DNA of 64,000 bases from Candidatus Methylomirabilota bacterium (GCA_046726415.1 JBKPAK010000112.1:2334-66333), one strand, 5' to 3'; positions 4,460-7,756 are shown, numbered from the stretch's first letter. Program-made: numbers and translations. The notes: a model not told the origin generated them from the sequence alone.

Positions 4460-4846
4460 TTAGAACAGATCCACAGGCTGCAGTTGTCCCGCCGCCGCTT
4501 TCACCAGCGATTCCCGGGACTCGCGCCCGCTGACGCTCTCCACGTCGCCACCCATGTCGCGCACGTAGGCGAGCACATCGTGAAGTTGTTTCTGCATCTC
4601 GACCATCCGGCACCTCATTTTTAGGATGACCTCGACGCCGGCGAGATTCACGCCCATGTCGCGCGTTAAGCGAAGCAACCGCGCGAGATCCTCGACATCC
4701 TCCTGGGAGTACATCCGCGTTCGCCCCACGCTGCGACTGGGCCGCAACAGCCCTTTCTTTTCGTAGAAGCGCAGGGTTTGCGGATGGACCTTGAGCATCT
4801 CGGCCACCACGCCGATCATGTAAAGAGGTCGGTTCCGGTCCGTCAC
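4460..4846 (-). CDS. hspR: MerR-family heat-shock repressor HspR
   Basis: N-terminal HTH ...VAEMLKVHPQTLRFYEKKGLLRPSRSVGRTRMYSQEDVEDL matches HspR family; positioned after dnaK-dnaJ as in classic dnaK operons; 4-nt overlap (ATGA) with upstream dnaJ-like gene. Confidence 0.85.
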   Translation of the reverse strand: MTDRNRPLYMIGVVAEMLKVHPQTLRFYEKKGLLRPSRSVGRTRMYSQEDVEDLARLLRLTRDMGVNLAGVEVILKMRCRMVEMQKQLHDVLAYVRDMGGDVESVSGRESRESLVKAAAGQLQPVDLF

Positions 4847-5727
4847 TCCGCTCCTCCTCGGTACCGCGCGAGGTTGGTCCGCACCGACATGGGAATCAGC
4901 CGCTCCAGATCACGCACCATCTCGTCCGTTCTCACATCGAGGCCTTGCGGGATCTCCACCCGAACCGTCACGTAGAGGTCACCGGTGCCGCCATCACTGA
5001 GCCTCGGCAGTCCCTGGCCCCGGAAGCGGAACACCTGACCCGGCGAGGTTCCCGCCGGCACCACCAGCAGGGTGGCCCCCGCCGGAGTGGGAACCGTGAT
5101 GCGAGCGCCGCGGATTGCCTCCCACACCGTGATGGGCACCTCGCAGTGCACGCTGTCCCCCTTGCGCATGAAAAAAGAGTGCTCGCGAACTCGCGTACTC
5201 ACCACGAGATCGCCCCGCGGCCCTCCGAACGGACCGGCGTGGCCCTCTCCCGGAACGCGGATCTGCACTCCGGAATCCACCCCGGCTGGAATGGCCACCT
5301 TGACGCGTTCGGTGGCCCGCCGCACTCCGCGCCCTTGGCACGAAGGGCACCGTCCGGTCGCCCCCCCACCCGCCGCGCCGCACTCTGGACACGGAGAAAA
5401 GCGGGTCACGCTGGCGGCCAGCTCGACGCCGCGCGCCGCATCGGCGAACCCGAGTTCGATGGTCATGTGCAGATCGTCGCCGCGGCGGCCTGCCCCTAAC
5501 GCGTCGGCGGGAGTGGCGGCACCGAACTGGTCGTAGTGGGCGCGCGCCTGGGGATCGCTGAGGATCCGGTACGCCTCGCGGATCTCATCGAACAGGACGC
5601 GCGCGCGCTCGTCCCAGAAGTTCACGTCCGGAGAGTACTGCCGCGCGAGGCGCTGGTACGCCTGGCGCACCTCGCGCGGCCTCGCCGTGGCGGCCACTCC
5701 CAGCACGGCGTAGTAGTCACGTCGCAT
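4843..5727 (-). CDS. DnaJ-like co-chaperone with non-canonical J-domain (SPD instead of HPD) and only two CxxCxGxG repeats
   Basis: DYYAVLGV...AYQRLARQYSPDVN...EAYRILSDPQARAHYDQFG is a clear J-domain but codons at 5626-5637 (rc TAC TCT CCG GAC) give Y-S-P-D; zinc-finger region has CPECGAAGGG and CPSCQGRG only; DnaJ C-terminal domain follows. Confidence 0.85.
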   Translation of the reverse strand: MRRDYYAVLGVAATARPREVRQAYQRLARQYSPDVNFWDERARVLFDEIREAYRILSDPQARAHYDQFGAATPADALGAGRRGDDLHMTIELGFADAARGVELAASVTRFSPCPECGAAGGGATGRCPSCQGRGVRRATERVKVAIPAGVDSGVQIRVPGEGHAGPFGGPRGDLVVSTRVREHSFFMRKGDSVHCEVPITVWEAIRGARITVPTPAGATLLVVPAGTSPGQVFRFRGQGLPRLSDGGTGDLYVTVRVEIPQGLDVRTDEMVRDLERLIPMSVRTNLARYRGGAE

Positions 5728-5730
5728 GGC

Positions 5731-7629
5731 TTACTTCTTGTCGCCGAGGTCCTCGAATTCGGCGTCTACGACCTCGCCGTCCTTGGCGCCGCTGGCACCA
5801 TCGCTGCGCTTCGGTTCTCCCTGCTGGGCCTGCGCCTCGCGGTACATGACCTCGGCCAGCTTGTGGGATGCACGGGTCAGATCCTCCTGGGCGCGCTTCA
5901 TCCGCTGAAGATCCTCGCCTTTGAGGGCCTCGCGGGCCTCGCCCAGAGCATCCTCGACTGCTTTGCGATCGGCTTCGGCCAGCTTCGGGCCGTGTTCACC
6001 GAGCGTCCGCTCGGTGGAGTACACCAGAGAGTCGGTATGGTTCCGGACCTCGATCTCTTCCTTGCGCTTGGCGTCGGCGGCGGCGTTTGACTCCGCCTCC
6101 TTGACCATCCGCTCCACTTCGTCCTTGGTGAGGCCCGAGGAGGCGGTGATGGTAATGTTCTGCTGCTTGCCGGTGGCGACGTCCTTGGCCGACACGTTGA
6201 GGATGCCGTTGGCGTCGATGTCGAACGTCACCTCGATCTGCGGCACGCCACGCGGAGCCGGCGGGATGCCCACGAGATGGAACTTGCCCAGCGTGCGATT
6301 GTCCCGCGCCATCGGACGCTCTCCCTGAAGCACGTGCACCTCGACCGACGTCTGGCTGTCGGCGGCCGTGGTGAAGATCTCGCTCTTCTTGGTGGGAATC
6401 GTCGTATTGCGGGTAATCAGCGGGGTCATCACCCCGCCCAGCGTCTCGATCCCCAAGGACAGGGGCGTCACGTCGAGCAGGAGCAGATCCTTGACCTCGC
6501 CGGTCAGCACCGCCGCCTGCAGGGCCGCGCCCACCGCCACGACCTCGTCGGGATTGACCCCCTTGTGAGGCTCCTTGCCGAACAGCTGCTTCACCGCCTC
6601 TTGCACCTTCGGCATCCGCGTCTGGCCGCCGACGAGAATCACCTCGTCGATATCGCTCGGGCTCACGCCCGCGTCCTTCATAGCCTGGCGGCAGGGGCCC
6701 ACGGTGCGCTCGATCAGCTCGGCCACCAGCGACTCGAGCTTCGCCCGTGTCAACGTGAGCACGAGATGCTTCGGGCCGCTGGCGTCGGCGGTGATGAAGG
6801 GTAGGTTGATTTCCGTCTGCAGCGTGGACGACAGCTCGCACTTGGCCTTCTCGGCGGCTTCCTTCAGGCGCTGGAGGGCCATCCGATCCTTGCGGAGATC
6901 GATGCCGTGCTCTTTCTTAAATTCGTCGGCGATCCAGTCCATCACCCGCTGATCAAAGTCGTCGCCGCCCAGATGCGTATCGCCATTGGTCGCCTTGACC
7001 TCGAACACCCCCTCGCCGATCTCCAACACCGACACGTCGAACGTGCCGCCGCCGAGGTCGTACACGGCGATGGTCTGGTCCTTTCTCTTGTCCATGCCAT
7101 AGGCGAGCGCGGCCGCCGTGGGCTCATTGATGATGCGCAGGACCTCGAGCCCGGCGACCTTCCCGGCATCCTTGGTAGCCTGGCGCTGGCTATCGTTGAA
7201 GTACGCGGGGACGGTGATGACGGCCTGAACCACTTTCTCACCGAGGTACGCTTCAGCCGCCTCCTTCAGCTTGCGCAGGATCATCGCGGAGATCTCCGGA
7301 GGCGCGTACTGCTTGCCGCGGATCTCCACCCGCGCGTCGCCGTTGGCCGCTTTGACGACCTTATAGGGCACCAACTTGATCTCGCTGAGCACTTCGTCGT
7401 AACGGCGCCCCATGAACCGCTTGATGGAGAAAATCGTGTTCTCTGGATTCGTGATGGCCTGGCGCTTCGCCACCTGGCCCACGAGCGTCTCGTCGTCCTT
7501 GGTGAACCCCACGACCGACGGGGTCAGGCGACTACCCTCCTGGTTTGCGATCACGGTGGGGTCCCCCCCCTCGACCACCGCGACAACGGAGTTCGTCGTG
7601 CCCAAGTCGATACCAATCACCTTCGCCAT
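5731..7629 (-). CDS. dnaK: molecular chaperone DnaK (Hsp70)
   Basis: [18 protein letters not shown]..., [24 protein letters not shown]-terminal EEVD-like acidic tail; 632 aa. Confidence 0.97.
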
Positions 7630-7727
7630 TTGAGGCTCCCTTCGTATGAAATGTGCCGACCTTCAGTCCACGAGTTCACCTGCATCGACTCCAATCCAAC
7701 CCGGCGGCTACATGTGAGCGTACTGTT

Positions 7728-7756
7728 TATATATCAGATTAGTGCATTACTGTCAA
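7728..7756 (-). promoter_or_regulatory. near-consensus sigma-70-type promoter for dnaK operon: -35 TTGACA (rc of 7751-7756), 17-nt spacer, -10 TATATA (rc of 7728-7733)
   Basis: Read on minus strand: aactTTGACAgtaatgcactaatctgaTATATAaacagtac; lies in a ~120-bp AT-rich island (7690-7810) that is exceptional in this ~70% GC window; about 95 nt upstream of dnaK ATG. Confidence 0.5.

Follow-up and report, generated by a model that had tools for sequence, protein, structure and literature searches.

A DnaJ-derived protein with SPD at the HPD position in the dnaK-hspR-lon operon of the Methylomirabilota

We analysed a 64,000-nucleotide stretch of DNA from a Candidatus Methylomirabilota bacterium (GCA_046726415.1 JBKPAK010000112.1:2334-66333; hereafter the window), in which dnaK, a J-protein gene, an hspR-like gene and lon follow one another on the minus strand. 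The J-protein, here called SPD-J, is derived from DnaJ and reads Ser-Pro-Asp where a J-domain is expected to carry its signature tripeptide His-Pro-Asp (HPD). We found SPD to be fixed across the phylum and under purifying selection, and the feature that goes with it to be the loss of the whole glycine/phenylalanine-rich (G/F) region. Judged from sequence together with published work on the HPD His, SPD-J may be a docking-competent, non-stimulating derivative of DnaJ that serves as a holdase or as a regulator in an HspR-DnaK-Lon circuit, which is the function we favour and hold at about even confidence.

Fixation of SPD across the phylum

Residues 31-34 of the window J-protein are Y-S-P-D, with a Ser codon (TCT) that is two substitutions from CAT, as an original prediction made from this DNA had reported and as both the coordinates and the translation show. 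That prediction had named orthologous operons as the place to check the motif, and orthologues all carrying HPD as the observation that would speak against it; the comparison instead showed SPD in 239/239 of the closest clusters and purifying selection on the gene. A protein identical to that of the window recurs on 11 independent metagenome contigs, and all of the best homologue clusters carry SPD (120/120, at 69-99% identity). A second subfamily, with proteins of 335-349 aa and four CxxC motifs, has SPD in 119/119 clusters and was found in the same syntenic operon on a closed contig of 5.49 Mb (L151). SPD is likewise present in 21/21 species-level GTDB genomes, all annotated as Rokubacteria or Methylomirabilota, and in 48/48 J-domains of the roughly 0.96 Mb of related loci that were fetched. 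When a library of 1.84 billion representatives was searched, SPD or SPG occurred only in the top six clusters, and the matches at 45% identity or less were all canonical HPD class A DnaJ proteins of other phyla.

The Ser codon differs among 45 orthologous genes (TCG in 37, TCT in 5 and TCC in 3), and median dN/dS is 0.16 for the J-domain, 0.20 for the C-terminal domains (CTDs) and 0.39 for the linker. A neighbour-joining tree recovers the SPD clade as monophyletic in 100/100 bootstraps, with the two-CxxC form nested within the four-CxxC forms. From the universality of SPD, the synonymous Ser codons, the low dN/dS and the tree, we infer one ancient His-to-Ser change that was kept by selection, and a later deletion of CxxC motifs 2 and 3. 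On these sequence comparisons we regard SPD as a selected feature of the whole phylum, and not as an error or a lesion of one strain. The rival view that sequencing or assembly introduced the Ser, or that the gene is a decaying pseudogene, could draw on the frameshift-split operon genes of some long-read metagenome-assembled genomes (MAGs), but it is ruled out by the recurrence of the same protein on independent contigs, by the presence of SPD, encoded through three synonymous Ser codons, in a set of over 280 independent sequences, and by dN/dS of 0.16-0.20 over the whole of a gene whose open reading frame (ORF) is intact and which has a ribosome-binding site for the coupled downstream gene; we consider it vanishingly improbable. 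The splits themselves were seen in long-read MAG loci L010, L013, L019 and L020, where tblastn distributes dnaK, the J gene or lon over several frames, and these are most likely homopolymer assembly errors rather than true pseudogenes.

Architecture of the SPD J-protein

The J-domain of SPD-J occupies residues 1-69 and is joined by a 15-aa linker to CTD I, which holds one zinc centre; CTD II and a C-terminal helix complete the protein. The J-domain scores 69.4 bits with PF00226, against a cut-off of 27.8, and the client-binding CTDs score 147.8 bits with PF01556. The NCBIfam model for bacterial DnaJ (TIGR02349 DnaJ_bact) gives 246.5 bits against a cut-off of 377.2, and PF00684, which describes the four-repeat CxxCxGxG region, has no match in the window J-protein. 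Because it lacks three features that define class A DnaJ (HPD, the G/F region and the four-repeat zinc finger) and falls below the NCBIfam cut-off, SPD-J is not to be filed as DnaJ. By sequence it fits the operational definition of a pseudo- or type IV J-domain protein (JDP) (PMC13254874), having a recognisable J-domain in which HPD is replaced non-conservatively; the failure to stimulate the Hsp70 ATPase that also marks this class would be expected from published data on the His and from the loss of the G/F region. An AlphaFold2 (AF2) model shows the four-helix J-fold (helices at 3-14, 17-31, 40-57 and 59-68) with SPD in the loop between helices II and III, as well as confidently predicted CTDs. 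The best structural matches retrieved by Foldseek were bacterial DnaJ proteins and, among the full-length ones, the HPL pseudo-JDP DNAJB13.

It is the G/F region, completely lost, that co-varies with SPD; the original prediction had left this unmentioned. In the alignment, a block of 40-50 aa present in every HPD relative is missing from all SPD proteins, and in the window protein the J-domain is joined to CTD I by no more than residues 70-84, a Phe-free linker of 15 aa. For E. coli DnaJ to activate DnaK productively, the G/F region is required. The prediction had pointed to a zinc finger with two of the usual four repeats; the count is correct, but the half finger is unlinked to SPD, since the SPD proteins of the sister subfamily have four CxxC motifs, and several HPD relatives as well as the HPD paralogue of the phylum have motifs 1 and 4 only. 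The two motifs of the window protein are CPECGAAG and CPSCQGRG, with C113/C116 belonging to motif 1 and C127/C130 to motif 4. All four of these Cys are invariant, zinc centre I is kept, and motifs 2 and 3, which form zinc centre II, are deleted.

The determinants of docking on DnaK are invariant in SPD-J (Pro33, Asp34 and four Arg of helix II), and the loop RLARQYSPDVNFWD is nearly invariant across orthologues. Read from the sequence, helix II of the window protein has Gln at the positions of all three of K23, K26 and K31 in E. coli DnaJ. The neighbouring DnaK is canonical, scoring 1055 bits with NF001413 (cut-off 648), and in alignment it keeps the equivalents of E. coli DnaK R167, N170 and T173 as well as the linker DLLLLD. 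No compensating change in its J-interface was found at the residues checked, in a shallow comparison with only a few DnaK proteins from outside the phylum.

A canonical HPD J-protein elsewhere in the phylum

The original prediction had also suggested a search for a canonical dnaJ elsewhere in the genome. No second J-domain was found within the window or within the roughly 0.96 Mb of related loci. The phylum does possess an HPD J-protein, represented by P0156 (HEV8676679.1, "Methylomirabilota bacterium"), which with its 119 homologues carries HPD in 120/120 cases; the homologues include proteins named Candidatus Rokubacteria and Rokuibacteriota. Members of this family share with SPD-J the J-domain, a CTD I with a single zinc centre (two CxxC), CTD II and the phylum, and they differ from it in HPD, in a long G/F region with a DFSDFF motif, in their neighbours and in their promoter elements. 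Their genes sit in conserved ftsH-(htrA)-dnaJ-clpB clusters of MAGs named Rokubacteria or Methylomirabilota, and their clade is separate from the SPD clade (sister in 0/100 bootstraps). The search thus succeeded for the phylum and stopped short of placing an HPD J-protein in the same assembly as SPD-J. That both genes occur in one genome is nevertheless a strong inference, given that SPD-J is present in each of the dnaK operons that the phylum yielded. The existence of the canonical protein fits the idea, put forward in the prediction, of a regulatory and non-stimulating partner of DnaK.

An HspR-type operator is absent before the HPD J-protein and clpB genes, where a different conserved inverted repeat is found instead. 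In the clpB leaders of the Rokubacterial loci L152-L162 (for example L155:7054-7208 and L156:5415-5567) this repeat, GATCCCGCG-N4-10-CGCGGGATC, directly follows a TTGACA-N17-TAnAnT promoter. It may serve as an operator or as an RNA element, and has no relation to the HAIR-like site of the dnaK promoter described below. The HPD J gene has a -10 box (TGnTACAAT/TAGAAT) only about 12 nt before its start (L152:7985-8001, L153, L156-L158 and L162), which suggests a leaderless or near-leaderless mRNA.

Proposed function of the SPD J-protein

Published simulations of E. coli DnaK with the J-domain of DnaJ have H33A still binding without reaching a stimulating state and D35A losing docking, and they place the HPD His in contact with the hydrophobic DnaK linker residue L391, from which the signal passes to the catalytic site (PMC13012618). 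An H->Q replacement abolishes stimulation (PMC13254874). We favour docking without stimulation for SPD-J because it keeps Pro-Asp and the Arg of helix II and is without both the His and the G/F region. J-proteins are known to interact physically with HspR and CbpM, and DnaK is a co-repressor of HspR (PMC4063869); a regulatory role fits these interactions and the translational coupling of the J gene to hspR.

As read from the sequences, a class A DnaJ ancestor lost the HPD His and the whole G/F region, two elements tied to DnaK activation, once, in the ancestor of the phylum, and zinc centre II later, in the Rokubacteriales. Strong purifying selection kept both client-binding CTDs, zinc centre I and a J-fold that still has Pro-Asp and a helix II of basic character. 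Under our favoured reading, the resulting protein would bind unfolded clients, HspR or both, and would dock on ATP-bound DnaK without triggering hydrolysis. In doing so, it may tune how much DnaK is available to HspR, as a feedback, and the fate of clients between refolding and hand-over to Lon. Productive stimulation of the ATPase would be supplied by the separate canonical J-protein, with HPD and a G/F region, that is encoded beside clpB.

Several observations weigh against docking without stimulation. The J-domain of the AF2 model is of moderate confidence (pLDDT 46-75), and no assembly with both SPD-J and the HPD paralogue was found among the accession prefixes and ENA samples compared. 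The SPD loop, S-P-D-V-N-F/L-W-D, has an invariant and bulky N-F/L-W where canonical DnaJ has N-P-G, and these residues could replace the contact between His and linker. Finally, a designed J-domain analogue without HPD has been reported to stimulate Hsc70 (cited in PMC13254874).

The last two observations speak for SPD-J being still a working co-chaperone, whose loop would make the contact with the DnaK linker and stimulate the ATPase independently of His. No part of the protein is more conserved than the J-domain, the loop is nearly invariant including F/L37 and W38, and the gene lies 3 nt behind dnaK, in the classical position of dnaJ; H33 acts via L391 in the simulations (PMC13012618), and an aromatic residue could mimic it there. 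However, every His replacement tested (H->Q by experiment, H33A by simulation) abolishes stimulation, and in all members the loss of the His is accompanied by that of the G/F region. The SPD cluster P0126 has the loop IAVGD, with neither F nor W, the residues examined in DnaK hold no compensating change, and a canonical HPD paralogue is present in the phylum. We regard a working co-chaperone as unlikely. Somewhat less likely again is its stronger form, in which the SPD J-domain with its N-F/L-W loop would activate canonical DnaK as a phylum-wide, His-independent trigger and the HPD His would be dispensable in nature.

It is also improbable, in our judgement, that the J-like domain no longer acts on DnaK and has been repurposed for another partner, most likely the coupled HspR or possibly Lon. 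The 4-nt overlap of the J gene with hspR in the window, and the abutting of the two in most loci, suggest that the proteins are produced in stoichiometric amounts. CbpM, a MerR-fold homologue of HspR, binds the J-domain of CbpA at its DnaK-binding surface, and H. pylori CbpA binds HspR (PMC4063869); the three Lys that helix II has exchanged for Gln would also be in keeping with a changed partner. Set against this, the docking determinants Asp34, Pro33 and the four Arg of helix II are invariant. Moreover, J-hspR coupling is also found with a normal HPD DnaJ, both in another lineage (L145, described below) and in Actinobacteria, and therefore the coupling alone does not explain the loss of the His.

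HPD is regarded as the defining and indispensable signature of the J-domain, and the largest survey of JDPs discarded sequences without it. Whether J-proteins without HPD are accidents or products of selection is called "enigmatic" in a 2026 review (PMC13254874). SPD-J is a clean bacterial case of selection for an HPD-less J-domain, with an ancient His-to-Ser change that is fixed in a phylum, under strong purifying selection and coupled to loss of the G/F region. It holds the most classical position of dnaJ, the neighbouring DnaK is canonical, and the phylum has a normal HPD paralogue at another locus. The function proposed for SPD-J is putative and its hosts have not been cultured; with proteins of small size and soluble type, and an S32H revertant as control, the effect of a docking-competent, non-stimulating J-domain on Hsp70, on HspR feedback and on hand-over to Lon nevertheless becomes directly testable in vitro.

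Organization of the operon

The features of the locus are collected in Table 1. The four-gene, head-to-tail operon of the original prediction, with gaps of 3, -4 and 20 nt, was reproduced in its coordinates and, by Pfam and NCBIfam, in its gene families, with the NCBIfam HspR and DnaJ_bact models scoring below their cut-offs. The dnaK/J junction reads TAA-gcc-ATG, the J gene and hspR overlap in GTGA, and 20 nt separate hspR from lon. The gene order is kept in 21 genomes and many metagenome contigs, the overlap or near-abutment of the J gene and hspR is kept in most related loci, and lon adjoins hspR in 21/21 genome loci.

Table 1. Features of the dnaK-J-hspR-lon locus, in window coordinates
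Feature	Position	Strand	Description and basis
dnaK	5731-7629	minus	Canonical Hsp70, 632 aa; Pfam HSP70, E=5.5e-274
SPD-J (DnaJ-derived protein)	4843-5727	minus	294 aa; Pfam DnaJ and DnaJ_C
SPD codons TCT CCG GAC	5626-5634	minus	Ser32-Pro33-Asp34, at the HPD position
Single zinc centre, CxxC motifs 1 and 4	5326-5391	minus	Alignment to four-CxxC SPD relatives and canonical DnaJ
hspR-like MerR-family regulator	4460-4846	minus	128 aa, GTG start; Pfam MerR_1/MerR
lon (LonA)	2043-4439	minus	798 aa, ATG start; Pfam LON_substr_bdg, AAA, Lon_lid, Lon_C
Promoter and operator-like element	7715-7756	minus	Architecture conserved in relatives
GC-rich hairpin GGGGGGCC-tcgaaa-GGCCCCCC	2017-2039	minus	3 nt past the lon stop; without T-run

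The absence of grpE from the operon, as predicted, extends across the 64-kb window, where a GrpE probe was negative; it was also negative in the roughly 0.96 Mb of related loci and, in 21 genomes, over the 10 kb that flank the operon to left and right. Its detection of GrpE in other, unrelated loci validated the probe. In most relatives (L001-L019, L021 and L151) the operon is headed by hsp20, which lies between the promoter and dnaK and in most Rokubacteria is accompanied there by a strong hairpin (for example GCGACGGAGCGGG...CCCGCTCCGTCGC). In the window and in L020, its closest relative, hsp20 has been lost from before dnaK and a leader of about 100 nt is retained; no hsp20 was found anywhere in the window. 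The locus is best explained as the form that the HspR-autoregulated dnaK-dnaJ-hspR heat-shock operon takes in the Methylomirabilota, in the order (hsp20)-dnaK-J-hspR-lon, with autoregulation presumed.

Promoter, operator and transcription

The dnaK promoter consists of TTGACA (7756-7751), a 17-nt spacer containing TGn, and TATATA (7733-7728). The spacer holds an ACTAA/ACTCA half-site, and GTACGCTCA (GTACTCAA in relatives) lies near +1. The element TTTGACA-N7-ACTCAnn overlaps the -35 box and spacer and has the 7-7-7 geometry of the HspR-associated inverted repeat (HAIR), making it a degenerate HAIR-like sequence and a putative operator. The canonical HAIR, CTTGAGT-N7-ACTCAAG, had no match in the window with up to 3 mismatches allowed, and the promoter region contains no exact inverted repeat. 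The same architecture was found once per locus in 16 genome loci. In metagenomes the promoter pattern returned 120 matches, about 115 of which precede the same operon (hsp20-dnaK or dnaK), so that a metagenome scan for other regulon members with the promoter and operator returned almost only this operon. Three matches, L082, L100 and L132, were rejected as regulon members, being AT-rich epsilonproteobacterial promoters of hrcA-grpE-dnaK with the controlling inverted repeat of chaperone expression (CIRCE); the pattern overlaps CIRCE (TTAGCACTC...) by chance, and these loci doubled as a positive control for the GrpE probe.

The HspR-like regulator scores 63.2 bits with MerR_1 and 104.6 bits with NF047375 HeatShock_HspR, 0.4 bit short of the cut-off of 105. 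LonA, with an N-terminal substrate domain, an AAA+ module and an S16 protease domain, scores 943.8 bits with TIGR00763 (cut-off 608). Within the operon we detected neither an internal promoter nor a terminator. Terminators were sought with a consensus scan that requires a T-run, and this requirement is why the scan left the hairpin after lon unreported. This hairpin is the likely end of the operon. With lon adjacent in every locus, no internal promoter or terminator found and a hairpin after lon, co-transcription of lon with dnaK and hspR, as originally proposed, is plausible. In the best explanation of these features, a single strong promoter of sigma70 type, overlapped by the putative HAIR-like operator, would drive the whole operon.

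Comparison with known systems

A literature search on SPD J-domains, on bacterial class A-derived or type IV pseudo-JDPs, and on DnaJ in Methylomirabilis or Rokubacteria found nothing specific. Among known systems, the dnaK-grpE-dnaJ1-hspR operon of Actinobacteria (Streptomyces, Mycobacterium) shares the order dnaK...J-hspR, with hspR directly after the J gene. It is autoregulated through HspR and HAIR with DnaK as co-repressor, and the likeness lies in a single autoregulated promoter overlapped by an operator, which here is predicted. In contrast to the actinobacterial operon, the present one has no grpE, has hsp20 before dnaK in most relatives and has only a degenerate HAIR as operator; lon, a member of the HspR regulon in Streptomyces, is here within the operon. 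Actinobacterial DnaJ1 is a canonical class A protein with HPD, whereas SPD-J has SPD and no G/F region.

In the cbpA-hspR modules of Helicobacter and Campylobacter and in cbpA-cbpM of E. coli, a J-protein gene is likewise followed by that of a co-translated, small MerR-fold protein. Binding of the J-protein to HspR or CbpM is documented there (PMC4063869) and the role of the J-protein is regulatory, not bulk folding, a role that SPD-J may share. CbpA is of class B, keeps HPD and the G/F region and has no zinc centre, whereas SPD-J is derived from class A and is without the His; CbpM has lost DNA binding, whereas the regulator here has a MerR-type helix-turn-helix and scores close to the HspR cut-off.

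Eukaryotic pseudo- or type IV JDPs (DNAJB13 with HPL, Pam16/Tim16, and those of Plasmodium) share with SPD-J a recognisable J-domain, a non-conservatively altered HPD and an otherwise class A- or B-like protein. They mostly alter the Asp or the whole motif, whereas SPD-J is bacterial, has only the His changed, is encoded in a dnaK operon and is fixed in a phylum. E. coli DjlB and DjlC (HPE), which work with HscC, are also natural bacterial deviations from HPD retained by selection, but their Asp change is conservative and HscC is a diverged Hsp70; in SPD-J the His is replaced and the neighbour is a fully canonical DnaK.

A locus from another high-GC lineage, L145 (GCA_041597635.1; DnaK 68% identical), has the order dnaK-hsp20-dnaJ-hspR followed by a sigma-70 family gene, and its DnaJ has HPD, a G/F region and four CxxC motifs. 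Its promoter, TTGACC-N7-ACTCAAA, places a similar HAIR-like element before an HPD-type operon. The L145 operon looks like the ancestral type of state.

Neighbourhood of the operon

Just downstream of the lon hairpin, an intergenic 84-bp tandem repeat spans positions 1808-2011 of the window (2.4 copies, 95% matches). The repeat lies upstream of an SLT-domain gene (1016-1717, minus). At the opposite end of the operon, past dnaK, the neighbourhood (7819-15000) is conserved and begins with a divergently transcribed gene (7819-8481), followed by DUF1844 (8476-8970, minus), MazG (8986-9783), a Macro domain gene (9747-10313) and pilB, pilT and pilC of type IV pilus type (10372-14648). The synteny of this neighbourhood is repeated on the 5.49-Mb contig (L151).

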